Below are positions 4,484 to 53,577 of a DNA stretch of 64,000 bases, piece after piece. Below the pieces are notes generated by a model. It ran no database searches, was not told the origin of the DNA, and saw nothing but the letters and a program-made list of their open reading frames with translations. Both the position numbers and the translations under genes were made by a program. Each line of letters begins with the position of its first letter. Within the stretch, counting starts at the first letter, position 1. The DNA comes from an uncultured Enterobacterales bacterium (GTDB taxonomy: Bacteria; Myxococcota_A; UBA796; CAJQPC01): positions 19,259 through 83,258 of the forward strand of contig CAZCVP010000003.1 in NCBI GenBank assembly GCA_964501915.1, in the 5' to 3' direction.

Positions 4484-4560
4484 CCCGACCCCGGGGAAGT
4501 GGGGCGAACGATAGCCGAGGGCCCGGCGGGGCCGTGGTAACAACAGCGGGGAGGATCGCG

Positions 4561-23450: not shown

Positions 23451-23488
23451 GCCGCCAACGTATCCCAGGAGGGTGGCATCATGCGCCC

Positions 23489-26031: not shown

Positions 26032-26082
26032 GTCCCGATCGGGTGGTCCCCCGGTCCCTGCCGACTACACTGCCGCCTGCGG

Positions 26083-28997: not shown

Positions 28998-31300
28998 CTG
29001 CTCTTCTCCTCTTCTCCTTGCTGGCCTGCCGTGACGATGGTCTCGTGGTCTACGAGACCCCTCCGATCGTCAGCATCGAGACCCCCGCGGACGGTTCCTC
29101 CTTCTACGAGGGCCAGGAGGTGCTCTTCACCGCCGTGGTCGCGTCGGGGGGCACGGCCTCCGTGACGGACCTCACCACGCGCTGGGTCGTCAACGACAGC
29201 CCCCTGTGCGACTCCACCGCCGTGCCCCCCGACGGTGTGGCGATCTGCACCGGAACGCTGGAGTCCGAGGGCGAGTACATCGTGCAGGTCAAGGCGGTCG
29301 ATCCCAGCGGTGCCACCGCCGAGGACTCGATCATCGTCTACGTCCAGTACAACAACCCGCCGACCGTCGAGATCCTCAGTCCGGCGGCGGGCGACGTCTT
29401 CGGTGTCGGCCAGCTCGTGGTGCTCGAGGCCCAGATCCTGGACCCCGAGGACGAGCCCACGAGCCTCCAGGTCGTCGTCGAGAGCAACGTCGAGGGTGTG
29501 CTCTCCGGTGTGCCCGAGAGTCCGTCGTCGGCTGGTGACTGGGCCGGTGGGACCCAGGACCTGACGGCGGGTTCCCACCTGCTCACCATCACGGCTTCGG
29601 ACTCCGTCGGCAAGACCGGCCAGGACACCGTCACGGTGCTGATGAACAACCGGCCGTCGGCGCCGACCGTGGCGATCGATCCCGGCAACCCCGTCTCCGA
29701 GGAGGCGCTGGTCGCGACCATCACCAGCCCGGCGATCGATCCCGAGGGCGACGCCATCACCCACCGCTACGACTGGTACGTGGACGGCAGCGTCTACAGC
29801 TCTTCGAACTCCCCCACCGTGCCCCTGGGTGTGGTCCAGCGCGGCGAGTACTGGGAGGTCCAGGTCTTCGCCAACGACGGCTACAGCGACTCGGCGCCCG
29901 GCTCCGACAGCGTCACCATCGGCAACAGCCCACCCAGCCTCGACTCCGTCACCATCACCCCGTCGGGAGCGGGGACCCTGGACGACCTCACCTGCACCCC
30001 GGTGGGCTGGCACGATCCCGAGGGCGACGCCGAGAGCTACGACTTCGTCTGGTACCACGACGGCACGGTCGACACCGACGAGACCACCGACTCCTTCCCC
30101 AACGAGAAGCACGCCAAGGGCGACGAGTTCCGCTGCGAGGTCACCCCTTCGGACACCTGGGCCATCGGTGACACCGTGTCCAGCTCCACCCTGACCATCC
30201 AGAACACCCCGCCCACCCAGCCCACGGTCATCATCGATCCCACGGCGCCGGAGCCCGAGGACAGCCTCTACTGCGACATCCTGACCGCTTCGACGGACGA
30301 CGACGACGACAGCATCAGCTACTACTACGCTTGGTACGTGAACGGCGTGCTGAACGCCGAGACCACGAATGTGCTCAGCGCCGACCAGACCGAGCACGGC
30401 GACACGATCGAGTGCGAGGTCATCCCCAACGACGGCGAGGACGACGGGACCGCGGGCACCTACGTGGTCAACATCACCGACGCCACGGCGCCGGATCCGC
30501 CCGTCCTGGACGACCCGGACCCCTACATCAACGAGGACAACCTCGACATCACCGGCACCTGCGAGGCCGGCTGCGACCTCACCTACTACTTCACCGACGC
30601 CACCGGTTCCTGGACCGAGGTCGGCACCTGCGAGAGCGACGGCACCCTGACGCTCCAGGTCTACCTGACCCGCGGCTACGAGACCACGGGCTACGCCACC
30701 TGCACCGACTCGGCGGGGAACACCTCGGGGAACTCGAACACGGTGACGATGCAGTCGTGTTCGGTGGAGGACACGTATGAGAACACGTCGGGGTATGGGG
30801 ACTCGGGGGCGAATGCGGTGAATGAGTGGAGTACGTTGACGGACGACGAGACCTCGACGGTCGAGACCATCACCGCCAACGCACTGACCTCCTCCGACGA
30901 GGACTGGTACGTGTTCTCGACGAACGACACGACGACCAGCAACGAGGAACAGTTCAACCTCCAGATCGACATGACGTCCGGCACGAGCACCTACAGCTTC
31001 GACGTCTACAAGGGCTCCCCGACCGGGGCCATCTGCACCGGCTCCGAGAAGAACTGCACGGGCTACGCGACCTCGTGCACCGAGTTCGAATTCTACAACG
31101 AAGACAACGCCATCACCCAGGACGGCGCCTCCTCGACCTACCACTCGACCGCCAGTCCTTCCTACCTGTGCGGTGACGCTGCCCAGAACGAGTGCCCCGA
31201 CTACTCCGATAGCTGGTACATCAAGGTCACGAGAAACGGAGGCGTCTCCGACTCCTGTGACCACTACGAGCTCGAAGTGAGCATGTCGGCCCGCCCATAG
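28994..31300 (+). CDS. large modular surface lipoprotein (Ig-like domains, 3 x about 92-aa DxDGD modules, Ig-like + PPC-like C-terminus)
   Basis: ATGA overlap with the upstream rSAM gene. MTALLLFSLLAC lipobox. The C-terminal region (TGTCEAGCDLTYYFTDATGSWTE ... TDSAGNTSG ... DEDWYVF ... WYIKV) is collinear with that of the 41655-46133 product. Confidence 0.8.
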   Translation: MTALLLFSLLACRDDGLVVYETPPIVSIETPADGSSFYEGQEVLFTAVVASGGTASVTDLTTRWVVNDSPLCDSTAVPPDGVAICTGTLESEGEYIVQVKAVDPSGATAEDSIIVYVQYNNPPTVEILSPAAGDVFGVGQLVVLEAQILDPEDEPTSLQVVVESNVEGVLSGVPESPSSAGDWAGGTQDLTAGSHLLTITASDSVGKTGQDTVTVLMNNRPSAPTVAIDPGNPVSEEALVATITSPAIDPEGDAITHRYDWYVDGSVYSSSNSPTVPLGVVQRGEYWEVQVFANDGYSDSAPGSDSVTIGNSPPSLDSVTITPSGAGTLDDLTCTPVGWHDPEGDAESYDFVWYHDGTVDTDETTDSFPNEKHAKGDEFRCEVTPSDTWAIGDTVSSSTLTIQNTPPTQPTVIIDPTAPEPEDSLYCDILTASTDDDDDSISYYYAWYVNGVLNAETTNVLSADQTEHGDTIECEVIPNDGEDDGTAGTYVVNITDATAPDPPVLDDPDPYINEDNLDITGTCEAGCDLTYYFTDATGSWTEVGTCESDGTLTLQVYLTRGYETTGYATCTDSAGNTSGNSNTVTMQSCSVEDTYENTSGYGDSGANAVNEWSTLTDDETSTVETITANALTSSDEDWYVFSTNDTTTSNEEQFNLQIDMTSGTSTYSFDVYKGSPTGAICTGSEKNCTGYATSCTEFEFYNEDNAITQDGASSTYHSTASPSYLCGDAAQNECPDYSDSWYIKVTRNGGVSDSCDHYELEVSMSARP
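29647..30478 (+). repeat. three tandem about 276-bp coding modules (about 92 aa each)
   Basis: Each module starts N(R/S/T)PP(S/T) and contains DPEGD/DDDDD...Y.(W)Y..G......GD...C.V.P.D. The modules are diverged at the DNA level. Confidence 0.7.
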
Positions 31301-38093: not shown

Positions 38094-38192
38094 CCACACG
38101 CCGGGGAGTCTACGGGTTGGGTGCACTCCGGGGGCGTCAGCAGCGTGTCGAGGCGCCCTGGTGCGTGGTATGGTGCCCATCCGTCCTCCCCC

Positions 38193-38699
38193 ATGGACAG
38201 CCGCATGGATTCACGCCGAGACCTCATCAAGAAGCTCGCGGTCGGCGCAGCCGCCGTCACCGCCCTGCCCGCTCCCCGGGCACAGGCTGCACGCTTCGTG
38301 GAGTACCTGGCCCCGGGTCCGGACCCGACCTGGTTGATCGCCCCTCTGTCTGCCGGCGACGGCATCGGCCACGGGTGGAGGCTGCGCGGCATCTCGACCC
38401 CCCGCCGCGGAGCCGTGGTGCTGGACCTCGTGCACGAGACCCTGGCGCCGGTCCAGGTCCACCTCTGCGCCCACCGCGGAGCCCCAAAGGGCGTCGCCCA
38501 CAGCCACTTCCTCGACTTCGTGCTCATGGACGGAGGCCAGGGCGACCGGCGGACCGAGGAGTCCATCGGACGGGCCCTGCGAGCCCTGGCCCACACCGTC
38601 GCCCGCAACGAGCTGGCGGCCGAGTCCGATCCAGCCCTGCTCGGACGCCTGATGACCCACGGTGAGCGGGTCGAGCGCTTCGGCCCCGAGGCCCTCTGA
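38193..38699 (+). CDS. TAT-signal hypothetical protein, first gene of the HXS-like block
   Basis: MDSRMDSRRDLIKKLAVGAAAVTALPAPRAQA contains a twin-arginine motif (SRRDLIKK). Its stop overlaps the next start (TGATG). Confidence 0.6.
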   Translation: MDSRMDSRRDLIKKLAVGAAAVTALPAPRAQAARFVEYLAPGPDPTWLIAPLSAGDGIGHGWRLRGISTPRRGAVVLDLVHETLAPVQVHLCAHRGAPKGVAHSHFLDFVLMDGGQGDRRTEESIGRALRALAHTVARNELAAESDPALLGRLMTHGERVERFGPEAL

Positions 38700-39145
38700 T
38701 GGCGGAGGGCACGTCGGAGACATCCTCCCAGGAGCTGGTGTTCGAGACCGCTGAGCGGAGGGTCACCTTCGAGATCGACGAGGAGATCTACCCCCGCGAC
38801 GCGATCTACGGCGCGGCCTACCTCTTCATGGATCGCTGCTACCTCTTCCTGGGCCGCCCGGCGGATCGCATCGTGAGCGTGCAGCTCCGGACCCGGGGCG
38901 AGGCCGACGAGGAGACCCTGACGGAGCTGGCCGGCGAGTTCGCCAACGAGCTGCTCAACCAGGTCCTGCGCCTCCGCGTCGGCGAGGCCACCACCCGCAT
39001 CCGTGAGTACACCCTGGCCAAGGCCTTCTTCTCCGACCCCGGCCGCAGCACCATCGATGCCCTGCTGGCCGAGCTGGACGCCGAGGAGCTCGACGAGGAC
39101 CCCCTGGAGATCGAAGTGCCCTGGGAGACCTCCACGGATGGCTGA
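38699..39145 (+). CDS. HxsD-like protein
   Basis: 148 aa. The pattern IYPRDAIYGAAYLFMDRCY ... FANELLNQVLRLRVGEATTRIREYTLAKAFF resembles my recollection of His-Xaa-Ser system protein HxsD (TIGR03976, signature LLNDYxLRE followed by ...IR...AKAF). Not verified by search. Confidence 0.5.
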   Translation: MAEGTSETSSQELVFETAERRVTFEIDEEIYPRDAIYGAAYLFMDRCYLFLGRPADRIVSVQLRTRGEADEETLTELAGEFANELLNQVLRLRVGEATTRIREYTLAKAFFSDPGRSTIDALLAELDAEELDEDPLEIEVPWETSTDG

Positions 39146-39356
39146 GCTGACCTTCTCCCGCTCGCTCTACCGTCCCGATGCCGTCCAGACCGCCGCACGG
39201 ACCTTCGAGAAGCTGGCCCGTGTCGAGGTCCGGGTCGAGGAAGACCAGGTCGTGGTGGTCCTCGATGACCCCCACCCGGCCCTGGCCCACAAGCTGGCCG
39301 ACGAGCTGGCCAACCACGCCCTCCACCACACGATCGTCGCGGAGCGGGAGATCTAG
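39138..39356 (+). CDS. short HxsD-like paralog
   Basis: 8-nt overlap with the upstream gene. The 72-aa product is MAELTFSRSLYRPDAVQTAARTFEKLARVEV...LADELANHALHHTIVAEREI, which repeats the Y..DA...AA..F and EL.N.aL pattern of the preceding gene. Confidence 0.45.
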   Translation: MAELTFSRSLYRPDAVQTAARTFEKLARVEVRVEEDQVVVVLDDPHPALAHKLADELANHALHHTIVAEREI

Positions 39357-39503
39357 GAGGCGGCCAGGAGGGTGACGAACGTCCGCCACCCCCTGCCCGA
39401 CGCCCGTCACCCCCCGCGCGGTGAGACGCACGACGTCGCGGCTGCGGCAGCCCGGCACGGCGCTGGCACTCCGTCCCCCACGGACCCCAGCCCGGACACC
39501 GCC

Positions 39504-39965
39504 ATGCCCGCCATCGACCTCGAGCCCACCCTGGTCCTGCGGCCGATCCCCCCCGCGGACTCCCCCCGGGTCGCCGCCAGCTTCGACCCCCACGCCGGCG
39601 TCTACCAGCTCCACGTGCCGCGACCGCTCCATGCCGCCCCGTTCGCCATGACCCCGGCTGTGACCCGGTGGTTCCTGGATCGCCTCCTCCAGGTCCAGCA
39701 CCGCGGGCCCCGCCGTCACCTCGGCTGGCGGGGAGGCCGGGCGCTGGAGATCGCGACGGTCCACGAGCTCGGCAGCCCCATGATCCGGCTGCGACAGGTG
39801 GGACTGCCCCGCGCCGGGACCGGCTGGCAGCAGGAGCTGCGCTTCCCCGAGACCTGGCTGCTCGGCCTGCTGATCGCCCTGTCCCACGTCCACCAGAGGT
39901 GCAGCGAGGCCGGGACCGAGCGCCTCCCACAGCGACGGGGATCGGCGCTACCCTCGGCGCACTGA
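39504..39965 (+). CDS. hypothetical protein
   Basis: 153-aa ORF from the internal ATG, with strongly G/C-biased third positions. No recognisable motif, and the start is uncertain (the ORF extends to 39372). Confidence 0.4.
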   Translation: MPAIDLEPTLVLRPIPPADSPRVAASFDPHAGVYQLHVPRPLHAAPFAMTPAVTRWFLDRLLQVQHRGPRRHLGWRGGRALEIATVHELGSPMIRLRQVGLPRAGTGWQQELRFPETWLLGLLIALSHVHQRCSEAGTERLPQRRGSALPSAH

Positions 39966-39977
39966 CCCGGGAGGCCC

Positions 39978-41588
39978 ATGCCCGTCCACCCCGACATCGC
40001 CGGCACCGGAAGCATGGTGGCCGACGCCATCTACCTCACCTCCCGCATCATCGGCCCCGAGGAGAAGGCCCTGCTGCTGGCCCACGGTGACGGGGCCGCC
40101 GTGCATCGCTTCGTGGGGGGGGTGACCCTCAACCACCTGGGCTGGGCCCGGCTCCTGGGCCTGGAGGTCGCCATCTTCGGCAAGCAGGCCGACGACGAGG
40201 CGGGCCGCTTCCTCCGGGCCGGCATGGAACGGGCCGGCATCCGGGCCCACCTCGACCTGTCGGGCGGAGCCAGCTCCGAGGCCAACATCTTCGTGGCCCC
40301 GGACGGCGGCCGGGCGATCTACATGGCCCGCGGCGCCACCGGGGACTTCACACCGGAGGAGGTCGACGCGGACTTCGGCGAGCTGATCGACCAGGCGCCG
40401 ATGGTCACGACCGAGATCAGCCAGCTCCCGCTGGCGACGGTGAAGCGGGTCCTGGAGCGGGCCCGGGCCGCGGGCGCTCGGACCGTGGTCGACTTCGACG
40501 TGCCCCTGGTCGACGCCGTGCCGGCCCTCGGCAGCCGCGAGGAGCTGGAGGAGGTCCTGGGGCTGACCGACGTCCTCAAGCCGTCGCTGGCAGCCATGGA
40601 GGGCTTCGTCGACACGTCGTCTCCGGAGGCGACCGCGCGGGCGCTGGCGAGCACCTACGGGTGCCGCCTCGTGGCGATCACCGACGGCGAGCGGGGCTCC
40701 ACGGTGCTGGCCGGCGACACCCTGGCCCACGTGCCGAGCGTGGCGATCGAGGTCGTGGACACGACCGGCGCCGGAGACGCCTTCCTCGGCGGGTTCGTGG
40801 CCGGCCTCCGCCTCGGCCTGGACCCGGTCGCCGCCGCGCGCCTGGGCAATGCCTGCGGCGCCACCTGCTGCGAGCGCCTGGGGGCCTTCCCCGAAGACGC
40901 CGAAGCGTGCCGGGCCCGCATCCTCCAGCTCCACCAAGCCATGGGCGGACAGCCGCTCTGCATCGACGTGGTCGACACACCACCCCCCTCGTTGCCGGCC
41001 CTGGAGACCTTCTGCGAGACCGCCGCCACCGAGGTCTCGCTCACCACCCAGGACCTCGACCGCGCGGCCGTGGCCGCGGCGGCGGACCTGATCGCCGCCC
41101 GGAGAGCGCAAGGGAGCCGGGTCCACGTGACGGGAGTCGGCAAGCCGGCCTACGTCGCGGGCTACGTCGCCAGCCTGCTGTCGAGCACCGGCACACCGGC
41201 GACCTTCCTCCACGGCACCGAGGCCACCCACGGCAGCGTGGGCCAGCTCGAGCCAGGGGACGTGGTCATCGCGATCTCGAACAGCGGCGGGACCCGGCAG
41301 CTGGTGGCCTCGGCCCGGGCCGCGGTCGGACGAGGAGCCCACCTCGTCGCCGTCACCGGAGGCGCGGACTCCGAGCTGGCCGACCTCGCCGAGGTCGTGC
41401 TGCTCGCCTCCGTCGCCTCCGAAGGGGGGCCGCTGGGCCTGGCACCGCGGGCGAGCGTGCTGAACGAGCTGGTCGTGCTGATGGCCCTGTCGGTGGCCCT
41501 GCAGGAGCGACGCGGGCTCGATCGGGAGCAGTACCACGCCCGGCACCCGGCGGGGGCGCTGGGCACGGCGAGCGCCGGGCCGACCTGA
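39978..41588 (+). CDS. PfkB-family carbohydrate kinase fused to a SIS (sugar isomerase/phosphosugar-binding) domain
   Basis: 536 aa. Ribokinase-like motifs: GGVTLNH and VVDTTGAGDAFLGGF. The C-terminal SIS pattern is VHVTGVGKPAYVA...GDVVIAISNSGGT...LVAVTGG. Confidence 0.85.
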   Translation: MPVHPDIAGTGSMVADAIYLTSRIIGPEEKALLLAHGDGAAVHRFVGGVTLNHLGWARLLGLEVAIFGKQADDEAGRFLRAGMERAGIRAHLDLSGGASSEANIFVAPDGGRAIYMARGATGDFTPEEVDADFGELIDQAPMVTTEISQLPLATVKRVLERARAAGARTVVDFDVPLVDAVPALGSREELEEVLGLTDVLKPSLAAMEGFVDTSSPEATARALASTYGCRLVAITDGERGSTVLAGDTLAHVPSVAIEVVDTTGAGDAFLGGFVAGLRLGLDPVAAARLGNACGATCCERLGAFPEDAEACRARILQLHQAMGGQPLCIDVVDTPPPSLPALETFCETAATEVSLTTQDLDRAAVAAAADLIAARRAQGSRVHVTGVGKPAYVAGYVASLLSSTGTPATFLHGTEATHGSVGQLEPGDVVIAISNSGGTRQLVASARAAVGRGAHLVAVTGGADSELADLAEVVLLASVASEGGPLGLAPRASVLNELVVLMALSVALQERRGLDREQYHARHPAGALGTASAGPT

Positions 41589-41654
41589 GCGCGCTGGCGG
41601 GAGCGCCCGAAGCGCCGAACTCCGTGGTATCTTGCGCCTCCGAACCGGCCCTCC

Positions 41655-44600
41655 ATGACTCCTCTGTTCGCCCTTCTCCTGCTGGCCGGCTGCCCGGACC
41701 AGAACATCGGCCGCTACGTCGCGCCGCCCGTGGTGGCGATCGAGAACCCCAAAGAGGGCGACGAGCTCTACGAAGGCGTCTCCGTCGGCATGGTCGGCGT
41801 GGTCGCCGACGAGGCCTACTCGACCCGCCTCGACCAGCTCACCGTCCTGTGGCTGGTCAACAACGAGCGCGTCTGCGACGACGCCACCCTCGACGTCAGC
41901 GGTGTGACGGTCTGCGAGCACGTCTTCCCCGTCGGCGAGGCGGAGATCCTGCTCTCGGCGACCAACCCCGACGGCGAGGCCGACGACAGCACCGTGGTGG
42001 TGACCGTGCTGGCCAACGGCGCTCCCACCCTCGACATCGAAGCCCCCACCGCCGACAGCAGCTACTACAGCGACCACCTCGTCGAGCTGAAGGCCACCGT
42101 GAGCGACCCCGAGGACCCCTCGGAGGACCTCAGCGTCACGTGGGTGGGAGCCGGTCCCGACGAGTGGTCCGTCGACACGGACCCGACCAGCGACGGGACG
42201 GCACTGGGCTCGATCCACATGGAGAGCGGGGAGTGGTTCATCACCGCCACCGTCAAGGACACCGTGGGCCGGACCGCCCAGGACAGCGTGACCATCCTCG
42301 TGGGCGAGCCGAACAACCCGCCCGAGTGTGCCATCACCTCTCCGGAGAGCGGCTCCGGGGTCGCGGAGGGCAAGGCCACCTTCTTCGAGGGCACGGCCAG
42401 CGACGCCGACGTGGCCTCGGACATGCTGACCGCGGAGTGGAGCAGCGACCTCGACGGCCCGCTGGGAAGCTCCACCGTGCCGTCCGATGGCAACCTGACC
42501 TTCAGCGCCTCGTCGTTGTCCACCGGGGCCCACACCATCACGCTCCAGGTCGCCGACGAGGTCGGCACGACCTGCACCGACAACATCCAGTTCCTGGTCG
42601 GCACCCAGCCCTTCGTCACCATCACGGCTCCGACCTCCGGCGACACGTCGAACCAGGGCGACTCGGTGCTCTTCGAGGCCCTGGTCCAGGACCTGGACCA
42701 CGACCCCACCCTGGTGACCCTGAGCTGGTCGAGCACCCTGGACGGCGTCTTCAACGACCAGTCCGCCACCAGCGCCGGCGAGACCACCTTCACCACCCAG
42801 GCGCTGTCCGCCGGCGCCCACACCATCACCCTGTCCGCCATGGACCCCGAGGGCTTCACGGGCAGCGACTCGATCTCGTTCACGGTCAACGGGCTCCCGG
42901 ATCCCCCGGACGTGGAGATCACGCCCGACCCGGCGACCTCGGCCGACGACCTCAACGTGAGCATCGTCATCGACGCCATCGACCCCGAAGGCGACACGAT
43001 CACCTACGCCTACGCCTGGTACCAGGACGGCCTCGCGACCAGCCACACGAGCGGCTTGTTGCCCTCGTCCGCGACCACCCGCGGCGAGACATGGCGGGTC
43101 GACGTCACCCCGCACGACGGGCTCGGCACCGGCGATCCGGGCAGCGACACGGTGACCATCGAGAACGCTCCGCCCAGCATCGCGCTGGTCGCCCTGACCC
43201 CCGATCCGGCCGACGTCACCGACACCCTCACCTGCGCGGTGGTCGGCTCCAGCGATGCCGACGGCGACACCGTGACCCTGGCCTACGCCTGGACCGTCAG
43301 CGGCAGCACGATCTCCCACTCCAGCACGACCCTGAGCAGCGACTTCGCCAAGGGCGACACGGTCACCTGCACGGTCACCCCCACCGACGGCAGCGCCACC
43401 GGCACGCCGGTCACCTCCAACACGCTGACCATCGTCAACTCGGCGCCCAGCCTCACCAGCGTGAGCCTCACGCCGACCAGCCCCGGCGTCGGCGACACCC
43501 TCACCTGCACACCCAACGGCGCCTCGGACGCCGACGGCGACGCCATCTCCTACGCCACCGCCTGGACGGTCGGCGGGGTCACGATCAAGTCCACCGGTGA
43601 GACCCTCACCTCGCCGGACTTCGCCAGGGGCGACGAGGTGTACTGCACCGTCACGCCGACCGACGGCACCGACGCCGGCACGGCGGTCGACTCGAACACC
43701 GTCACCATCGGCAACACCGCCCCCGAGCTCAGCGAGGCCTCCCTGTCCCCGGACCCGGCCTACGAGGCCGACACCGTCGTCTGCACGCCGGGATCGTCCA
43801 GCGACGCCGACGGCGACAGCGTCACCTACACCTATGCCTGGACGATCGACGGCGGCAGCACCTCCGCCACCTCGAGCAGCCTCACGGGCAGCGACTTCGA
43901 CAAGGGAGACGACGTCGTCTGCCTCGTCACCCCCAGCGACGGCACCGACGACGGCACCACCGTCTCCACCTCGGCCCTCACCATCTCCAACACGCCGCCG
44001 AGCGTGGCCAGCGCGTCGATCTCCCCGTCCACCGCCTACGTCGACGACCTGCTCTCGGTCTCGACGAGCGGCTGGAGCGACGACGACGGCGACACGGAGT
44101 CCTACCTCTACCAGTGGTACGTCAACAGCTCTCCGGTGTCGGGCGCGACCGTGAGCACCTTCTCCGGCAGCTTCGAGAAGGGCGACGTCGTCGAGGTGAT
44201 GGTCACCCCCTACGACGGCACGGACAGCGGCACCGCGGTGACGGCCTCCGCGGTGACCATCTCCAACTCGGCGCCGACGATCGACAGCGTGAGCCTCACC
44301 CCGACCAGCGCCACGGAGTCCAGCACCCTGACCTGTAGCGCCAACGGCACCGACGACGCCGACGGCGACAGCGTGAGCGAGTCCATCACCTGGTCGCTGA
44401 ACGGCGTCACCATCTCGGCCACGAGCACCACCCTCGACGGCGGGGACTTCTCCAAGGGCGACGAGGTGGTCTGCACGATCACCCCCGACGACGGCACGGA
44501 CACCGGGACGGCGGTGGACAGCAACACGGTCACCATCGCCAACACCCCACCCGTGCTGTCCAGCGTGACGCTCGGTCCGGACCCGGCCTATGAGAGCGAC

Positions 44601-46133
44601 ACCCTGACCTGCTCCCCCGGCTCCGACAGCGACGCCGACGGCGACGCCATCGCCCACACCTACGCCTGGGACGTCTCCGGGACCCCGCTGTCGGTCACCA
44701 GCACCACCCTGACCGGGTCCTACTTCACCAGGGGCGACTCGGTGAGCTGCACCATCACGCCGGACGACGGCGAGGACACGGGCACCTCCGTCAGCTCCAA
44801 CTCGATCACGATCTCCAACACGCCCCCCTCCGGCACCAGCGTCTCGATCAGCCCCACCAACCCGCTGGTCGACGACACCCTCACCGCCTCGGCGACCGGC
44901 TGGAGCGACGCCGACGGCGACAGCGAGGGCTGGCTCTACCAGTGGACCGTCAACAGCAGCGACGTCTCCGGGGCGACCTCGAGCGGCCTGGCCGGCGCCT
45001 TCTCCAAGGGCGACTCGGTGACGGTCACCGCCTGGCCCTGGGACGGCACCGACGCCGGCTCGGCGATCACCTCGTCCGCCGTCACCATCGGCAACACGGC
45101 GCCGACGGACCCCGTCATCTCGATCAGTCCGTCGAGCCCCGAGCCCGACGACGACCTGACCTGCACCCTGTCGACCTCCAGCACCGACGCCGACGGCGAC
45201 AGCCTCAGCTACACCTACGTCTGGGACCAGAACGCCGTCGTCACCAGCTACACCACCAACACCGTGCCCAGCAGCGCCACCGCCCACGGCGACACCTGGG
45301 GCTGCTGCGTCTACGCCAGCGACGGCACCGACACCTCGGCCACGGTCTGCGAGACGGTCAACGTCTCCGACAACACCGCGCCGAGCGCACCCACCATCAG
45401 CAGCATCGACGCCTACCGCAACGAGGCCGACGTCGACCTGTCCGGGTCCTGCGAGGCGAGCTGCAGCCTGGTCTTCTACCTCTCCGACAGCACGGGCTCG
45501 TGGACCGAGTCGGCGACCTGCTCCTCGTCGTCCACCTTCAGCCACACCTCGTACCTGACCCGGGGCGACGACACCGACATCTTCGCCACCTGCGAGGACA
45601 CGGCCGGCAACGTCTCCGGGGCCTCGAACACCGTCACCACCCAGGTCTGCGACCCGGAGGACATCTTCGACGGCTCGAGCTTCTCCAGCGGCTACGGAGA
45701 CAGCGAGTCCAGCCCCGTCGACTACTGGGGCACACTGAACGACGACGGGAGCGTGCTCATCGAGATCGACGGCAACATCGTGTCGACGGGCGACGAGGAC
45801 TGGTTCGTCATCCACACCAACGACTCCGTCTACGGCCTCGGCTCCGGCTCGCCCACCTACGACTTCTACCTGCTGATGTCCGACGGCGTGGGGACCTACG
45901 CCTTCTACGTCTACAAGGACTCCGTCGGCTCTTCCACCCTGGAGTGCTCCGGCGAGACCGACGGCTACGACGAATTCGAATTCTACGACGCCCGCACGAG
46001 CTGCGGCACCACCGCGACCGACTACGACTGCAGCTACAAGGACCTCTCCCACGACTGGTACATCGAGGTCGTTCGCGACCCGAGCGTGTCAGCGTCGTGC
46101 CAGGGGTATACACTGGAAATCACCAACGGCTGA
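41655..46133 (+). CDS. giant modular surface lipoprotein (Ig-like domains, about 9 x 92-aa DxDGD modules, Ig-like + PPC-like C-terminus)
   Basis: 1492 aa. MTPLFALLLLAGC lipobox. The N-terminal region (PPVVAIENPKEGDELYEG...) and the C-terminal region (SGSCEASCSLVFYLSDSTGSWTE...EDTAGNVSG...DEDWFVI...WYIEV) are collinear with the 28994-31300 product. Confidence 0.85.
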   Translation: MTPLFALLLLAGCPDQNIGRYVAPPVVAIENPKEGDELYEGVSVGMVGVVADEAYSTRLDQLTVLWLVNNERVCDDATLDVSGVTVCEHVFPVGEAEILLSATNPDGEADDSTVVVTVLANGAPTLDIEAPTADSSYYSDHLVELKATVSDPEDPSEDLSVTWVGAGPDEWSVDTDPTSDGTALGSIHMESGEWFITATVKDTVGRTAQDSVTILVGEPNNPPECAITSPESGSGVAEGKATFFEGTASDADVASDMLTAEWSSDLDGPLGSSTVPSDGNLTFSASSLSTGAHTITLQVADEVGTTCTDNIQFLVGTQPFVTITAPTSGDTSNQGDSVLFEALVQDLDHDPTLVTLSWSSTLDGVFNDQSATSAGETTFTTQALSAGAHTITLSAMDPEGFTGSDSISFTVNGLPDPPDVEITPDPATSADDLNVSIVIDAIDPEGDTITYAYAWYQDGLATSHTSGLLPSSATTRGETWRVDVTPHDGLGTGDPGSDTVTIENAPPSIALVALTPDPADVTDTLTCAVVGSSDADGDTVTLAYAWTVSGSTISHSSTTLSSDFAKGDTVTCTVTPTDGSATGTPVTSNTLTIVNSAPSLTSVSLTPTSPGVGDTLTCTPNGASDADGDAISYATAWTVGGVTIKSTGETLTSPDFARGDEVYCTVTPTDGTDAGTAVDSNTVTIGNTAPELSEASLSPDPAYEADTVVCTPGSSSDADGDSVTYTYAWTIDGGSTSATSSSLTGSDFDKGDDVVCLVTPSDGTDDGTTVSTSALTISNTPPSVASASISPSTAYVDDLLSVSTSGWSDDDGDTESYLYQWYVNSSPVSGATVSTFSGSFEKGDVVEVMVTPYDGTDSGTAVTASAVTISNSAPTIDSVSLTPTSATESSTLTCSANGTDDADGDSVSESITWSLNGVTISATSTTLDGGDFSKGDEVVCTITPDDGTDTGTAVDSNTVTIANTPPVLSSVTLGPDPAYESDTLTCSPGSDSDADGDAIAHTYAWDVSGTPLSVTSTTLTGSYFTRGDSVSCTITPDDGEDTGTSVSSNSITISNTPPSGTSVSISPTNPLVDDTLTASATGWSDADGDSEGWLYQWTVNSSDVSGATSSGLAGAFSKGDSVTVTAWPWDGTDAGSAITSSAVTIGNTAPTDPVISISPSSPEPDDDLTCTLSTSSTDADGDSLSYTYVWDQNAVVTSYTTNTVPSSATAHGDTWGCCVYASDGTDTSATVCETVNVSDNTAPSAPTISSIDAYRNEADVDLSGSCEASCSLVFYLSDSTGSWTESATCSSSSTFSHTSYLTRGDDTDIFATCEDTAGNVSGASNTVTTQVCDPEDIFDGSSFSSGYGDSESSPVDYWGTLNDDGSVLIEIDGNIVSTGDEDWFVIHTNDSVYGLGSGSPTYDFYLLMSDGVGTYAFYVYKDSVGSSTLECSGETDGYDEFEFYDARTSCGTTATDYDCSYKDLSHDWYIEVVRDPSVSASCQGYTLEITNG
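42891..45368 (+). repeat. about nine tandem 276-bp coding modules (about 92 aa each)
   Basis: The modules begin N(A/S/T)(A/P)P and carry L(T)C....SDADGD...Y.Y.W...G..........F.KGD.V.C.VTP.DG.D.G. The protein-level periodicity is clear, but the DNA copies are diverged. Confidence 0.75.
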
Positions 46134-46141
46134 GCTCGACC

Positions 46142-46408
46142 ATGGCCCGACACGACGACCACAACGACGACGTCCCGGAGATCCCGGCGCTCGATCGCAA
46201 GCCCACCCAGTTCCTACAGAAGCAGGAGCTGGGACAGGTGAACGAAGAGCCCTCGCCGTCGCTGCTGCTGTTGCAGGCGGCCGACTCCCTGGAGCTCGAC
46301 CCGGACATGCTGGACCGGAACGCTCCGTTCCCGAACCTGCTGGCGACACACTGCTCGCATGGCTCCCACGGCTCCCACGGCTCCCACGGCTCCCACGGCC
46401 AGTGGTAG
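46142..46408 (+). CDS. His-Gly-Ser repeat peptide (HxsA-like candidate precursor)
   Basis: 88 aa: MARHDDHNDDVPEIPALDRKPTQFLQKQELGQVNEEPSPSLLLLQAADSLELDPDMLDRNAPFPNLLATHCSHGSHGSHGSHGSHGQW. It starts 8 nt after the lipoprotein stop and ends 6 nt before the first rSAM gene. Confidence 0.7.
   Translation: MARHDDHNDDVPEIPALDRKPTQFLQKQELGQVNEEPSPSLLLLQAADSLELDPDMLDRNAPFPNLLATHCSHGSHGSHGSHGSHGQW
46358..46399 (+). repeat. 9-bp tandem repeat (CAY GGC TCC) x4 plus a partial copy, encoding (His-Gly-Ser)n
   Basis: catggctcc cacggctcc cacggctcc cacggctcc cacggc, read directly from the sequence. Confidence 0.9.
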
Positions 46409-46414
46409 GCGCCG

Positions 46415-47419
46415 GTGGGTGAGGCCCACCGCGAGCGCCCCCCGGTCGGTCAGCTCGTCCTCACCGTCACACGCGGCTGCAACTACCGCTGCAGCTACTG
46501 CCCGACCGCGAAGGAGGGCTGGCCGAGCCTGACGACCGCGGACGCCGTCCACGCCGTCACGCTCTTCGCCGAGCGCTACGGCGGCGGAGACGTCAAGCTC
46601 TTCGGCGGCGAGCCCCTGCTGGAGCCGGAGGTCGTGGACGCCGCCATCGAGCGCTCGGTCGCGGAGCCGCGCATCCGGCGGATCTACCTGTCGACCAACG
46701 GCCTGGCCCTGGACGAGGGCTGGCTGGAGCGGCTGCGGAGGACCCCCAAGCTCGTCCTGACGCTCTCGCTGGACGGCTCCCCCGAGGACCACCGCCGCTT
46801 CCGGCGGGCCCTGCCCGGAGTGGCCGACAGCTACGACCGGGTGCTCGCCCTGCGGCCGCTGTTGCTCCAGACGCCCCGGGTGGTGGTGACGCAGACCGTG
46901 CCGCCCGCCTCGGCGGAGCGCGGCGCCGCGAACTTCAAGCATCTTCTTGATCTCGGCTTCAGGCGCTTCAACCTGCTTCCTGGGTACTTCATGCCCTGGA
47001 GGTCGGCCCAGCTCGGCGCCCTGCGCACCTCCCTCGCAGGCATCGGAGACGCGGTCATCGGCCTCTGGCGGGCCGGCGAGCGGGTCTACGTGCGCAACCT
47101 CTTCACACGAGCGCCGACGCCCTTCTTCAACACGGGCCTGGTGGTCGACAGCGATCGCACGATCCACCCGAGCAACGTCGGCCTGAGCGGCGCCCTGGAC
47201 GAGCTCCGAGACCGGACCCGGGTGGGCACGCTCGACGAGCCGCCGGCGCCCGAGGTGCTCGCCGAAGGGGCACACCGCGTCAACGCCCTGCTCGCCGAGA
47301 GCCTGCCGGACGGTGTCTGGCGGAGCACCCTGGCGGTCGACGCCGAGCTGACCCGCCTCGTGGAGCGCCTCTACCCGGAGTTCTTCGCCTGGCGCCAACG
47401 CCGCCGCGGTGCGGCATGA
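46415..47419 (+). CDS. radical SAM protein (block B, gene 1; candidate HXS maturase)
   Basis: GTG start. 334 aa. Motifs: CNYRCSYC and FGGEPLL. It has no additional Cys residues, so no auxiliary-cluster tail. Confidence 0.8.
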   Translation: MGEAHRERPPVGQLVLTVTRGCNYRCSYCPTAKEGWPSLTTADAVHAVTLFAERYGGGDVKLFGGEPLLEPEVVDAAIERSVAEPRIRRIYLSTNGLALDEGWLERLRRTPKLVLTLSLDGSPEDHRRFRRALPGVADSYDRVLALRPLLLQTPRVVVTQTVPPASAERGAANFKHLLDLGFRRFNLLPGYFMPWRSAQLGALRTSLAGIGDAVIGLWRAGERVYVRNLFTRAPTPFFNTGLVVDSDRTIHPSNVGLSGALDELRDRTRVGTLDEPPAPEVLAEGAHRVNALLAESLPDGVWRSTLAVDAELTRLVERLYPEFFAWRQRRRGAA

Positions 47420-48399
47420 GGCCGGGAGCCACCCCCTGGCTCCACCCGGACGGCCGGGTGATGCGCCGCCTGGAGCTCCACCTCACCTACACCTGTCCCG
47501 AGCGGTGCGTGTTCTGCTCCGAGCAGCACCGGATGGAGCGCTACGAGGCCTTCCCGGTGACCTGGGGCCGGGTGGCGACGGTGCTGCGCACGATGGCCGG
47601 CCGCGGCGTCGAGGCGGTCCACCTGACGGGGGGAGAGCCGACCCTCCACCCGAAGTTCGTCGAAGTCTGCGCCCTGGCGAAGAAGCTGGGGCTGCGGACC
47701 TCGATCGGCACCATCGGTACCCGACTGAGTCGGGAGGACTTCGCTCGCCGCGCCCTGCCGGTGCTGGACGAGGCCCTGTTCAGCCTCCACGGACCGACCG
47801 CAGAGGTCCACGATCCGCTGGTCGGCCGGGCGGGCAGCTTCGAGCGCGTGGTCCGGGCGATCGAGACCTGCCGCGGCCTCGACCCCGACTTCGACGTCTT
47901 CGTGAACACGGTGCTCACACCGACGAACGTGGAGCAGCTCGGCGACACCGTCGAGCTGGCCGAGGGCCTCGGTGCCCGCCTCATCGTCGTGTCGAACACC
48001 ACGCCGGAGGGCGGGGCCGAGGACCGCTACGAGGAGCTGGCGATCCCGCTGGAGCGCCTGGCCGCCGTCCTGCCGATCGCCGCGAAGCGGGCCCGACAGG
48101 CCGTCGTGCGCTTCTTCGGGGTGCCGATGTGCCTCCTGGGAGAGTCCTGGGCCCTGTCCAACGACCTCCACTGGGATCCACGGGTCACCGTGGAGTGGCA
48201 GAGCCGGCCCGGCAAGGTGGCCTTCGACGGCATCTACAACTGGGACCCGGGCCGCAAGCGTACCCACGTGGAAGTGTGTGAGCGCTGCGACCGGAGGGGG
48301 ATCTGCTTCGGGGTCTTTCGGGCCTACCGGGCGAAATTCGGCTCCGCGGGCCTGGTGGCGACGACGACCCACTCCGCAGGGGCTACTCTGACCCCGTGA
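47416..48399 (+). CDS. radical SAM protein with CxxCx5CxG tail (block B, gene 2; candidate HXS maturase)
   Basis: ATGA overlap with the upstream gene. 327 aa. Motifs: CPERCVFC, LTGGEPTL, GVPMC, CERCDRRGICFG. Confidence 0.85.
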   Translation: MRPGATPWLHPDGRVMRRLELHLTYTCPERCVFCSEQHRMERYEAFPVTWGRVATVLRTMAGRGVEAVHLTGGEPTLHPKFVEVCALAKKLGLRTSIGTIGTRLSREDFARRALPVLDEALFSLHGPTAEVHDPLVGRAGSFERVVRAIETCRGLDPDFDVFVNTVLTPTNVEQLGDTVELAEGLGARLIVVSNTTPEGGAEDRYEELAIPLERLAAVLPIAAKRARQAVVRFFGVPMCLLGESWALSNDLHWDPRVTVEWQSRPGKVAFDGIYNWDPGRKRTHVEVCERCDRRGICFGVFRAYRAKFGSAGLVATTTHSAGATLTP

Positions 48400-49430
48400 C
48401 CGCACCGACTCCGACCGCCGACAAGTCCCGCCTCTTCGAGGTCCAGCGAGACCGCCGGGTCAACGTGGAGATCAACGTCGGCAAGGCCTGCAACAACAAG
48501 TGCGTCTTCTGCCTCGACGGGCTGCCGAAGAGAGAGGACCGCTCCTTCATCTCCCTCGAAGACATGAAGGCCGAGCTGGAGCGCTTCTACGCCGAGGGGG
48601 CCCGCTCCGTCGGCTTCCTCGGGGGAGAGCCGACCACCTTCCCCAAGCTCCCTCACTCCATCGCCCACGCCCGGGACCTCGGCTACACGCGCATCGCCAT
48701 CGCCACCAACGGCACCCGGCTGCGCCTGCCCCACTACACCGAGCGGCTGCTGGAGGCCGGGCTCACCCGGGTGACGGTCAGCACCCACGGCCACACACGA
48801 CAGCTCGAGGACCGGCTGACCCGCGTGCCGGGCAACTTCGAGAAGAAGCGCCAGGCCCTGGAGCTGCTGGTGGCGGCCCGCGACGCCGGACGGCTCGTGG
48901 ACAACGTCTCCGTGAACATCGTGGTCAACGGCTGGAACTACGAGGTCCTGCCGAAGATGCTGAGGTACTTCTACAGCCTGGGCATCGATGACGTGCGGGC
49001 GAACTTCATCCGCACCGAGGGCTACGCCGAAGACGATCCCACGCTCACGCCGACCTATCGCGAGGTCGTGCCGGTGCTGGTGAAGACGGTCCTGCTCAAC
49101 GAGTTCCACTGGAAGAAGAACTTCACCTTTGGTGGCTTCCCGGTGTGCGTGCTGCCGCTGGAGCTGATCGGAAACTGGCGTCTCGCCCAGCGCTACATCG
49201 GCGAGTTCCGGGACCTGGACACCAACTGCTCCATCCGAGCCGAGGGCGACCACGGGGTCGCCACCGAGAGCGGTGGTCGTGCCCGCTTCAACTGGCAGGA
49301 CCGCAAGCGCCACGACCTCAAGCACCACCTCGAGACCTGCCGCGGCTGCCGCTACAGCGAGGTCTGCGAGGGGGTCTGGGGCTACTACCTCGGGGCCCAC
49401 GGCGAAGGGGAGTTCGCCGCGATCCCCTGA
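48396..49430 (+). CDS. radical SAM protein with CxxCx5CxG tail (block B, gene 3)
   Basis: GTGA overlap with the upstream gene. 344 aa. Motifs: CNNKCVFC, LGGEPTT, GFPVC, CRGCRYSEVCEG. It is collinear with the N-terminal part of the 26083-27867 product. Confidence 0.85.
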   Translation: MTAPTPTADKSRLFEVQRDRRVNVEINVGKACNNKCVFCLDGLPKREDRSFISLEDMKAELERFYAEGARSVGFLGGEPTTFPKLPHSIAHARDLGYTRIAIATNGTRLRLPHYTERLLEAGLTRVTVSTHGHTRQLEDRLTRVPGNFEKKRQALELLVAARDAGRLVDNVSVNIVVNGWNYEVLPKMLRYFYSLGIDDVRANFIRTEGYAEDDPTLTPTYREVVPVLVKTVLLNEFHWKKNFTFGGFPVCVLPLELIGNWRLAQRYIGEFRDLDTNCSIRAEGDHGVATESGGRARFNWQDRKRHDLKHHLETCRGCRYSEVCEGVWGYYLGAHGEGEFAAIP

Positions 49431-49445
49431 GGCCGTGTCCCTGGG

Positions 49446-52404: not shown

Positions 52405-53577
52405 TCAGCCCTCGTGCAGGGCCTCCAGGGCCCGCAGCAGCCGCTCACCGACCGCCGTGGGGCGAGCCTTCGCGCTGAGGGTCGCCAGCCCACGGGCGTT
52501 GGCGGCGCATACCTCCTCGCGCCGTCGCGCGAAGTGCGGGCTGCGAGAGATGGGGTGGTCGGTGGCGGCCAGGCAGGCGTGCATCCGGGCCACCGGCACG
52601 AAGGCGTGGACCGCCAGGAGCACACCCATCAGCGGGCGCAGGTCCGGACGCACCGGCGACTCGGTCCACTCGGAGTGCCCGTTGTGCAGCACCGGGTCGA
52701 GCCAGGACAACAGGTTCAGCTTGCTGTGCTGGGCCTCGTGGACGATGGCCTCGGCGAGGGTCAGGGGCTCCGGGTGGAGGGTCAGCCAGGCGATGCCCGG
52801 CGCCTCCCGGTAGCTCGCGCTGAGGTGCCGCTCGGGCTCGTACCCCACCGGCACGAGCCGTTCGAGGCTCCACGTCCGCTCCTCGGCCCAGGTCGGCAGG
52901 CCGAGCCGCACCAGCTCCAGCGCACCGCCCAGGGCAGCGGTCCACTGGCCCGGGGAACGACCCCCGAGGTCGACGTGGTTGCCGGCCTTGTCCGGGTGGG
53001 CCTCGACCGCCGACAGGGGGTGGGTGTCGAGCACGGTGAGGTGGAGGTCATCGAGGACGGCGTGGTACGGCGCCAGACCGCCCGGGTGCGGGAGGTGCGC
53101 CAGGCTCCCGTCGGCGAGGCGCAGCTCGACGCCCGCTGGATCGCACACCATGCCGCGGGCCGGCGGATCGAAGGTCCAGGCTCGGCCGAGTCGAGGCACG
53201 GCCAGGCGGCGGACCGGGTGGTCCCAGCGCACGGCCTCCCTCGGTGGGCTGGCGAGGGCGCCGAGCAGGTTGGGCACGGCCTCCGCGATGCGCTCGGCGG
53301 GATCGGTCACCCCACTCGCCACGCACAGGAGGTGTGGGAGCACGTCCGGCGCCCCGATCGCCCCGAGCACCGGGCCGGGACGGTCGCGGAGGGCCTCGAG
53401 GAGCCAGCCCTGGAAGCGAAGCAGCGGACGGGACACCGGACCTTCGACCCGAGCCGTGGCCAGGGTGCGGACGGCGAGCAGCCGGACCTTGTGCCGCAGC
53501 GTGCGCACCGTGGCCTCCCCAGGCGCCGGCACCACCAGGAATCCGCTCTCGACCACCGACCCTCCCACTCGGTCCAT
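52405..53577 (-). CDS. HEXXH-motif domain protein (TIGR04267-like putative peptide-modifying enzyme)
   Basis: 390 aa with AIVHEAQHSKLN (HExxH followed by ...KL) in the C-terminal third. Overall size and architecture match my recollection of the 'HEXXH motif domain' family. Not verified. Confidence 0.55.
   Translation of the reverse strand: MDRVGGSVVESGFLVVPAPGEATVRTLRHKVRLLAVRTLATARVEGPVSRPLLRFQGWLLEALRDRPGPVLGAIGAPDVLPHLLCVASGVTDPAERIAEAVPNLLGALASPPREAVRWDHPVRRLAVPRLGRAWTFDPPARGMVCDPAGVELRLADGSLAHLPHPGGLAPYHAVLDDLHLTVLDTHPLSAVEAHPDKAGNHVDLGGRSPGQWTAALGGALELVRLGLPTWAEERTWSLERLVPVGYEPERHLSASYREAPGIAWLTLHPEPLTLAEAIVHEAQHSKLNLLSWLDPVLHNGHSEWTESPVRPDLRPLMGVLLAVHAFVPVARMHACLAATDHPISRSPHFARRREEVCAANARGLATLSAKARPTAVGERLLRALEALHEG

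Follow-up and report, generated by a model that had tools for sequence, protein, structure and literature searches.

Organisation of the gene block

The 64,000 nucleotides analysed here (the window; contig CAZCVP010000003.1, positions 19,259 to 83,258, G+C about 72%) come from an uncultured bacterium with a Myxococcota_A lineage in GTDB. Positions 38193-49430 hold ten open reading frames (ORFs) of the + strand, co-directional and tightly packed, with a G+C content at third codon positions (GC3) of 0.82-0.97 and a coding-type codon bias. They encode, in order, a protein with a twin-arginine translocation (Tat) signal, HxsD, HxsD_rel, a hypothetical protein, a PfkB-SIS fusion, a giant lipoprotein, an HxsA4-type precursor peptide and three radical S-adenosylmethionine (SAM) enzymes (rSAM1, rSAM2 and rSAM3), a set that points to the His-Xaa-Ser (HXS) family of radical SAM maturation systems. 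The features of the block are the following:

38193..38699, + strand: Tat-signal protein, first gene of the cluster; 168 aa, or 164 aa from 38205; TIGR01409
38699..39145, + strand: HxsD, 148 aa; TIGR03976 62.6 bits, cutoff 50
39138..39356, + strand: HxsD_rel, 72 aa; NF038315 59.1 bits, cutoff 41
39345..40000, no strand: site of HxsB loss; 655 bp replace the 1553-bp HxsB gene of sister lineages
39372..39965, + strand: hypothetical protein, 197 aa, or 153 aa from 39504; GC3 0.90, coding-like
39978..41588, + strand: fusion of a PfkB sugar kinase and a SIS sugar-phosphate isomerase, 536 aa; PF00294 136.5 bits, PF01380 60.5 bits
41655..46133, + strand: lipoprotein, 1492 aa; LLLAGC lipobox, Ig-like domains, nine DADGD repeats of about 92 aa, Cys-rich C-terminal domain
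46142..46408, + strand: HxsA4-type precursor peptide, 88 aa; 69-aa acidic leader, then HCS(HGS)4-HGQW
46349..46399, + strand: 9-bp tandem repeat CACGGCTCC, 5.7 copies, encoding the HGS array
46415..47419, + strand: rSAM1, 334 aa; peptide-maturase-type core, PF04055 70 bits
47416..48399, + strand: rSAM2, HxsC-like, 327 aa; HxsC4 80.7 bits, cutoff 500; HxsC 66.9 bits, cutoff 267.9
48396..49430, + strand: rSAM3, HxsC4-like, 344 aa; HxsC4 153 bits over the full length, cutoff 500; HxsC 57 bits, cutoff 267.9

Overlaps join the Tat protein and HxsD genes (TGATG), HxsD and HxsD_rel (8 nt, with the ATG at 39138), rSAM1 and rSAM2 (ATGA), and rSAM2 and rSAM3 (GTGA), and short gaps separate the hypothetical gene from PfkB-SIS (12 nt), PfkB-SIS from the lipoprotein (66 nt), the lipoprotein from the peptide (8 nt) and the peptide from rSAM1 (6 nt). 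A consensus scan of the + strand of 37900-49800 gave no terminator-like site. ORFs, junctions and domain matches all agree with the preliminary description of this locus as a packed, co-directional string encoding these products. An assembly from another metagenome (L001) carries the block at 99.85% identity over 17.9 kb, and the block is also syntenic in diverged relatives, so that the arrangement is not due to chance.

HxsD, HxsD_rel and the Tat-signal protein

Membership of the block in the HXS family, proposed from the first description of the locus, is borne out by HxsD and HxsD_rel, which pass their curated cutoffs, and by the peptide, which is orthologous to genuine HxsA4; the 38699 product had been taken for an HxsD, and the search with the TIGR03976 hidden Markov model (HMM) agrees. 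The AlphaFold2 model of HxsD (predicted local distance difference test, pLDDT, 88.2) shows helices added to a small alpha+beta domain, and its nearest neighbours in the PDB are the assembly subunits Rpb11/RpoL and Pcc1. A PqqD-type recognition element for peptides that are made by the ribosome and then modified post-translationally (RiPPs) was rejected for HxsD because the model resembles adaptors of the Rpb11/Pcc1 type, and this predicted fold fits the HxsC-HxsD complex reported for E. coli. HxsD_rel is a distant paralogue of HxsD, aligning over 70 columns with the HxsD family in hhalign (E 5.5e-4); an identity as a NapD-like chaperone was discarded, as the NapD match reaches only 16.6 bits against a cutoff of 28.

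The protein encoded by the first gene carries a Tat signal (TIGR01409 19.6 bits, cutoff 16.7) and may start at 38205, as suggested by the homologue P0128. Among 44 homologues the RR pair is near-invariant, and the conserved residues comprise P, G, D, M, T, E and R together with one near-invariant H. The gene heads the cluster in about 30 relatives. Its AlphaFold2 model has a pLDDT of 85.5, and a profile search against PDB sequences returned no match (E >= 0.42).

A short member of the HxsA4 peptide family

The 88-aa peptide ends in THCSHGSHGSHGSHGSHGQW, and one third of its core is histidine, with no other basic residue. No signal peptide was detected, the N-terminus being acidic and free of a hydrophobic signal, and no Pfam domain, peptidoglycan-binding domain included, was found in it. 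Its native scores stay below the cutoffs of the HxsA (31.9 against 121.65 bits), HxsA4 (NF038313, 30.1 against 55) and HxsA2 (21.3 against 48) models, which it matches through the repeat only. However, the orthologue of a sister lineage (L088), 97% identical in amino acids, obtains 79 bits with NF038313, and the window peptide itself, when lengthened in silico to 14 units as a synthetic test sequence, obtains 100.5 bits, which indicates that the short array is the reason for the low score. At the level of sequence, the assignment of the window peptide to HxsA4 holds by orthology and not by score.

Members of the family share an N-terminal (K/R)KPxxF(L/M)Q motif, usually SLLLLQA...LDLDP...LDR, a core of the form H(C/A)S(HGS)n and an invariant HGQW end. 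A leader-plus-core precursor with family-conserved leader motifs lies next to rSAM1, which is a RiPP-like layout. The small ORF recurs in relatives, as the preliminary description would have it, and is the most conserved gene of the block: its ratio of nonsynonymous to synonymous substitutions (dN/dS) is 0.04-0.075, the lowest value found, with 93-97% amino acid identity to L088 and L006. The number of HxS units is five in the window, two in L001 and in L002 (also assembled from another metagenome), and both sister lineages carry 16 behind the same 69-aa leader.

The HGS array thus varies within a population that is 99.85% identical (five units at 46349-46399 of the window, two in a pair of JGI assemblies, at 10001-10240 of L001 and in L002), a difference that reflects either real slippage of the 9-bp repeat or repeat collapse in short-read assembly. 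The sole distant match to the peptide, P0002 on a 956-bp ENA contig, ends in ...SHGSHLSLIHI, and this C-terminus is a sequencing artefact, since LSLIHI is the translated Nextera adaptor CTGTCTCTTATACACATC.

Radical SAM enzymes of the block

All three enzymes match PF04055 (70, 82.9 and 80.2 bits for rSAM1, rSAM2 and rSAM3) and contain a CX3CX2C motif, and the conservation of their cysteines was assessed across 41 clusters. None of them reaches the thresholds for HxsB (best score in the window 27 bits, rSAM1, against 370) or HxsC (66.9 and 57 bits for rSAM2 and rSAM3 against 267.9). The best NCBIfam match of rSAM1 is PapB (75 bits, cutoff 340), and its only conserved cysteines are those of the SAM cluster (C22, C26 and C29), with none for an auxiliary cluster. 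Profile alignment of rSAM1 with hhalign scores 100.7 against HxsB (240 columns) and 99.3 against an HxsC-like paralogue (136 columns), which weakly suggests that rSAM1 is an HxsB paralogue ("B-prime"), the closest to HxsB among the paralogues, if modestly so. The valine at position 316 of rSAM1, where an extra cysteine is conserved, was dismissed as a sign of decay, since several HxsB-bearing lineages show this substitution too.

Further invariant cysteines are found in rSAM2 (C239, C288, C291 and C297) and rSAM3 (C251, C278, C315, C318 and C324), patterns that would fit one auxiliary Fe-S cluster, as in the HxsC of E. coli. In profile comparisons both enzymes group with the other HxsC-like rSAMs of the window (scores 150-250). 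Relatives with genuine HxsA4 likewise reach only about 159 bits with HxsC4 against its cutoff of 500, so this model is narrower than the clade. Judging from their profiles, rSAM2 and rSAM3 are homologous to HxsC and fall outside the HxsC equivalog.

The HxsA4 subtype in uncultured Myxococcota

More than 470 homologues of rSAM3 were recovered at 55-83% identity. In species-representative genomes they define at least 403 loci, nearly all in metagenome-assembled genomes (MAGs) labelled Myxococcota, Deltaproteobacteria or Polyangiaceae. Some 30 of the rSAM3-seeded loci with enough flank show the order Tat protein, HxsD, HxsD_rel, an rSAM of about 495 aa, small peptide, rSAM1, rSAM2 and rSAM3, where the ~495-aa enzyme is a genuine HxsB (490-504 bits, cutoff 370) and the peptide a genuine HxsA4 (87.5-99.3 bits, cutoff 55). 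As these proteins pass their cutoffs, the subtype is one already catalogued by NCBIfam (HxsA4 NF038313, HxsD_rel NF038315 and HxsC4 NF038332); a full-text search for literature naming HxsA4, HxsC4 or HGSHGSHGS found none. The subtype is widespread in uncultured Myxococcota, and four rSAMs, HxsB plus three, are its norm. The earlier view that the locus has three rSAMs instead of the usual two is therefore to be reversed: the window has three through the loss of HxsB from a set of four.

A peptide-seeded scan of metagenomes yielded 80 loci, with HxsB upstream in 19 of the 22 that have enough flank. The gene following the peptide is rSAM1 in 27 of 51 cases and a lipoprotein gene in four, and the peptides carry 3-62 HxS units with a median of 16 (family median 15-16). 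In some of these loci the lipoprotein gene directly follows the peptide or rSAM3 (L134, L136, L146, L117; L100, L116), one contig contains two peptide genes (L124), and the longest arrays have 55-62 units (L141 and L151).

The window's own clade was found through homologues of the Tat protein and comprises L085/L086 (on the same contig as L006), L087 and L088, which share an upstream membrane protein of about 590 aa. The gene order in L085/L006, L087 and L088 is Tat protein, HxsD, HxsD_rel, HxsB (499 aa), PfkB(-SIS), lipoprotein, HxsA4, rSAM1 and rSAM2. Compared with the standard order of the subtype, the window lacks HxsB and has three extra genes between HxsD_rel and HxsA4. The HxsD-like pair, once described as displaced, is where it should be, HxsD and HxsD_rel upstream of HxsB being the standard order, and the 7 kb that separate HxsD from the peptide result from the clade-wide insertion of PfkB(-SIS) and the lipoprotein.

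Relatives of rSAM3 at 41-45% identity were also seen in rSAM-rich clusters of Elusimicrobia MAGs (L075-L081), whose peptides end in (HGS)n-HGAW or -HGQW, one of them (L081) additionally with HxsD and HxsB; the subtype hence reaches beyond Myxococcota. Several contigs of the Myxococcota type with about 70% G+C (L006, L007, L025, L032, L038, L047 and L060) are deposited as MAGs of "uncultured Enterobacterales", "Klebsiella sp." or "Klebsiella pneumoniae", labels that look wrong or like placeholders.

Loss of HxsB

Comparison by blastn shows that window positions 36452-39344 are collinear with 1292-4196 of L088, and those from 40001 onward with L088 from 5750 onward. The gene lying between these blocks in L088 is a true HxsB (TIGR03978 498.9 bits). 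No HxsB was detected in the roughly 80 kb made up by the window and its flanks: tblastn over the whole window gave only generic matches to the rSAM core, and HMM searches of the flanks (about 16.5 kb, of which 9.95 kb lie on the left side and 6.6 kb on the right) gave none. Since L001 and L002 share the same HxsB-less gene order, the former at 99.85% identity, the deletion is real, and the comparison of sequences indicates that HxsB is cleanly lost in the window lineage, with a precise junction. A second, independent HxsB-less lineage is represented by L074 (6608-10987), which has no insertion, only 47 nt at the place of HxsB, and keeps the Tat protein, HxsD, HxsD_rel, a 15-unit peptide and rSAM1-3.

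The hypothetical gene at the deletion site may start at 39504, following the gene call in L001. Its product has no match in the family libraries and is homologous to a 160-aa ORF found after HxsB in L085 (tblastx 38% over 71 aa, E 1.5e-13). The idea of a degraded HxsB was abandoned, as an HMM of 32 HxsB sequences, run with filters off on the three + frames of 39340-39990, gave a best E of 3.

With HxsB deleted, and hxsB being essential in E. coli HXS, this copy might be an inactive remnant that is decaying after the loss of the gene and the shrinkage of the array. The few HxS units of the window (5) and of L001/L002 (2), where both sister lineages have 16 and the median is 15-16, point in that direction, as does the loss of the remaining cluster by the nearest rSAM3 relatives. 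Such decay seems improbable, nevertheless, given that all nine remaining ORFs are intact and dN/dS stays at 0.04-0.46. Against L088, L087 and L085/L006, the block genes other than the peptide show pairwise values of 0.18-0.46 and amino acid identities of 63-83%. In a three-taxon comparison of dN the window branch is about twice as long for the HXS genes, and equally so for flanking control genes; with no gene-specific acceleration on this branch, relaxed selection after the loss of HxsB was rejected. Moreover, L074 is also HxsB-less and yet retains its 15-unit peptide and all other genes, and peptides of 3-4 units adjoin HxsB elsewhere.

Partners and passengers

The preliminary description had counted the giant lipoprotein and the kinase/isomerase fusion inside the block as part of a non-canonical architecture. 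Both are indeed there, but the lipoprotein is no intruder: it is an expanded paralogue of a lipoprotein of about 770 aa that flanks the cluster in many relatives, and its counterparts in L085/L006, L087 and L088 have 1489-2045 aa. PfkB(-SIS), located between HxsB and the lipoprotein, occurs only in the window's clade (L085/L006, L087 and L088), and in L088 (5733-6764) the kinase gene encodes PfkB alone (343 aa), without the SIS half present in the window, L085 and L087. Most likely, PfkB-SIS is an addition peculiar to this clade, and its relevance is uncertain.

A similar doubt extends to rSAM3. The two most similar rSAM3s, in L003 (83%) and L007 (79%), each lack the rest of the cluster. In L003 (7787-9680) ABC transporter, GH1 and GyrI-like genes replace the whole block from the Tat protein to rSAM2, downstream synteny with the window is kept, and the breakpoint falls 16 nt upstream of the rSAM3 start codon. 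In L006, about 900 bp are inserted between rSAM2 and rSAM3. It is thus possible, if doubtful, that rSAM3 functions independently of HxsA4 and that PfkB-SIS and the hypothetical gene are passengers, a proposal that draws on the solo rSAM3s of L003, L007 and two mostly-solo clades, on that breakpoint, on the L006 insertion and on the restriction of PfkB-SIS to four lineages, one of them without the SIS half. Set against it is the order rSAM1-rSAM2-rSAM3, which is kept in more than 40 diverged loci, where stop and start codons commonly overlap, and which recurs in the peptide-seeded loci; in addition, the closest curated model to rSAM3 is the HXS-linked HxsC4. With rSAM3 standing alone in about one third of the loci seeded on it, the link between this enzyme and HxsA4 is strong but not obligate.

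Extended neighbourhood

Further genes of the window may be linked to the block:

23489..28997, + strand: four consecutive HxsC-like rSAM genes (452, 395, 594 and 377 aa); PF04055; HxsC/HxsC4 among the best NCBIfam matches, all below cutoff
28994..31300, + strand: lipoprotein, 768 aa; 47% identity over the full length to a 772-aa protein of L004
31301-32032, + strand: PF11617 "putative metal-binding motif" protein, in a gene string separate from the block
32063-32974, + strand: FG-GAP protein, next after the PF11617 gene
52405..53577, - strand: peptide beta-hydroxylase of the aKG-HExxH type, 390 aa; TIGR04267 91.7 bits, cutoff 40

The 768-aa lipoprotein is the orthologue of the protein encoded immediately upstream of the Tat gene in L004 and other relatives, and a paralogue of the 1492-aa one. 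No candidate precursor peptide for the second rSAM cluster was found at 22900-23520. Enzymes of the aKG-HExxH class are used in the tailoring of RiPPs (PMC12636437). Most relatives have orthologues of the second-string rSAMs and of the hydroxylase no more than 10 kb away from the HxsA4 cluster, with the hydroxylase gene adjoining the second rSAM cluster, which indicates that the block is part of a larger conserved set. To judge from this conservation, the hydroxylase may add one more tailoring step to the same pathway.

A bolder proposal, speculative and rather unlikely as a whole, is that the entire HxsA4 neighbourhood constitutes a single pathway, with up to eight rSAMs (HxsB, rSAM1-3 and four HxsC-like enzymes), the aKG-HExxH hydroxylase, the Tat protein of unmatched fold and repeat-expanding lipoproteins. 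It would convert poly(His-Gly-Ser) into an envelope polymer or cofactor of a new kind, heavily cross-linked or oxidised, whose role is not phage defence, and the window and L074 would be natural HxsB knock-outs. If this were true, the SPASM enzyme HxsB would be dispensable or replaceable by rSAM1.

A modified His-rich peptide encoded close to "putative metal-binding motifs" had been taken, with caution, as a hint of a metal-related function. The hint stays speculation, as the only such protein nearby is the PF11617 product (31301-32032), whose gene lies in another string. The modified poly-His peptide is unlikely to be a periplasmic chelator, a metallochaperone or the precursor of a metallophore, even though its core is one-third histidine, Tat export is typical of cofactor-loaded proteins and PF11617 proteins are encoded near the cluster in L005, L085, L016 and L022 as well. 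PF11617 proteins are abundant in Myxococcota generally, the conserved residues of the Tat protein do not resemble a classical metal site, family scans of the block revealed no metal transporter or regulator, and four to eight rSAMs would be superfluous if poly-His simply bound metal.

At the left end of the window lie two genes for B12-binding radical SAM enzymes of 445 aa each, at 1097-2434 (- strand) and about 4560-5898 (+ strand), interleaved with sulfatase/phosphodiesterase genes (Pfam domains taken from the gene calls of L178). This cluster is separate; a methyltransferase gene adjoins it, and a PAAR gene lies just beyond the window.

A probable derivative of the HxsA4-type branch without HxsB

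Taken together, the block is probably, with odds of about three to one (a probability near 0.75), a form, specific to this lineage, that derives from the HxsA4-type branch of HXS radical SAM maturation and in which HxsB has been deleted. Several observations weigh against this interpretation. Only the two HxsD-type proteins pass curated HXS thresholds, the three rSAMs and the native peptide remaining below theirs. rSAM3 occurs alone in the loci mentioned above, including the two nearest relatives. A Foldseek search of the Tat protein model against the PDB gave no neighbour (best E 1.1, TM-score < 0.3). Neither an exporter nor a leader peptidase is encoded in the block, an envelope destination being read from neighbouring genes alone. 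Finally, an HxsB-less cluster may be impaired, because all four HXS genes are essential in E. coli.

The chemistry and product of HXS systems had been regarded as uncharacterised, a statement that is outdated for the canonical system, HxsA/B/C/D (TIGR03976-03979), which acts against phages in E. coli by blocking the entry of phage DNA (Li et al., Nat Commun 2026, PMC13128918). There, HxsC binds HxsD, rSAM-dependent processing adds 8 Da to an S-H-R-S-S repeat of a periplasmic effector, and each of the four genes is essential (PMC13128918). In canonical HxsA, repeats enriched in basic residues are combined with a signal peptide and a peptidoglycan-binding domain, and defence requires both of the latter (PMC13128918).

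By analogy with E. coli HXS, the conserved leader of the HxsA4-type peptide would dock on a cytoplasmic complex of HxsD/HxsD_rel and rSAM, the HxsC-like enzymes would modify the His and/or Ser side chains of each HGS unit, and the product would act in the cell envelope with the Tat-exported protein and the lipoprotein. The step usually carried out by HxsB would be missing here, or be supplied elsewhere or by rSAM1. Both the chemistry and the role of the HxsA4 product are proposed by this analogy only, and the absence of a signal peptide, of a peptidoglycan-binding domain and of basic residues from HxsA4 speaks against a mere repetition of the E. coli mechanism.

For the same reason, it is possible but not likely that the matured (HGS)n peptide has the role of canonical HXS, that of an envelope-located anti-phage effector blocking the entry of phage DNA. 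HxsD, the HxsB of relatives and the HxsC-like rSAMs are homologous to those of a proven defence system (PMC13128918), the presence of the cluster differs among close relatives (L003 and L007), the repeat number is hypervariable, from 2 to 62 units, and varies within one population, and the partner proteins are of the envelope type. On the other hand, HxsA4 has none of the three features of canonical HxsA (signal peptide, binding domain and basic residues other than His), and its leader is under very strong purifying selection. A PADLOC analysis gave only weak generic pVip (viperin-like) matches to the rSAM cores and no defence signature. Across diverged Myxococcota the cluster also stays in stable synteny with genes for lipoproteins, rSAMs and the hydroxylase, unlike a mobile defence island.

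Comparison with known systems

The canonical HXS system has the gene order D-B-C-A, and 99.7% of its representatives are found in Pseudomonadota (PMC13128918). The window shares with it an HxsD that passes TIGR03976, a true HxsB in the sister lineages, HxsC-like rSAMs with a C-terminal auxiliary-cluster motif, a substrate with tandem His-Xaa-Ser units and a gene context that points to the envelope. However, the HxsA4-type substrate is a short leader peptide with (HGS)n-HGQW, and the family has an HxsD pair, four rSAMs (three of them extra), a Tat protein and a lipoprotein, follows another gene order and occurs in Myxococcota, the window moreover without HxsB. As far as sequence models can tell, the window fails the tests that define canonical HXS, with no HxsA, HxsB or HxsC at cutoff and a different order.

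The NCBIfam models of the HxsA4 subtype are closer: HxsD_rel of the window passes its model, the peptides of relatives pass HxsA4 over the full length, and rSAM3 aligns end to end with HxsC4. Nonetheless, the window peptide (30.1 against 55 bits) and rSAM3 (153 against 500) fall short, HxsC4 being a narrow "exception" model.

A chemical precedent for the His-Xaa-Ser unit would be offered by the triceptide rSAM/SPASM cyclophane synthases HaaB and HtkB, which cross-link the C2 of His to a residue two positions away (PMC11499958), although +8 Da does not equal a simple cross-link. As in those pathways, repeated three-residue motifs starting with an aromatic residue or His are carried on a leader-plus-core substrate and SPASM-type rSAMs act on the motifs, HxsB sharing neighbours of the PapB, CcpM and SCIFF types. 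The enzymes, however, are not orthologous (28-58 bits with the GrrM, FxsB, YhhB and AmcB models, cutoffs 310-445), the sole measured HXS change is +8 Da and not the -2 Da of a cross-link, and the window has no SPASM enzyme. Like PqqA/D/E and MftA/B/C, the block co-encodes a small peptide with C-terminal modified residues (predicted here), a small accessory protein and rSAMs, but the HxsD model has an Rpb11/Pcc1-like alpha+beta fold instead of the winged helix of a PqqD-type recognition element, and the PqqE and MftC models stay below cutoff.

Beside these systems, the HxsA4 subtype appears to be known as annotation models only, and its full architecture, its association with lipoprotein, Tat protein, hydroxylase and extra rSAMs, and its natural HxsB-less variants appear undescribed. 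The rSAM chemistry of canonical HXS, +8 Da on one repeat, is still unsolved, and its anti-phage role was shown only recently. The HxsA4 branch provides a much simpler substrate, in which a soluble leader peptide carries as many as 62 identical HGS units, together with a richer set of enzymes and natural HxsB-less variants, so that the chemistry of each enzyme could become separable by co-expression and mass spectrometry. In any case, HXS-type maturation is not confined to Pseudomonadota and apparently acts here on another type of substrate, in company with a Tat protein and a lipoprotein, which bears on the question of whether "HXS" always means phage defence.

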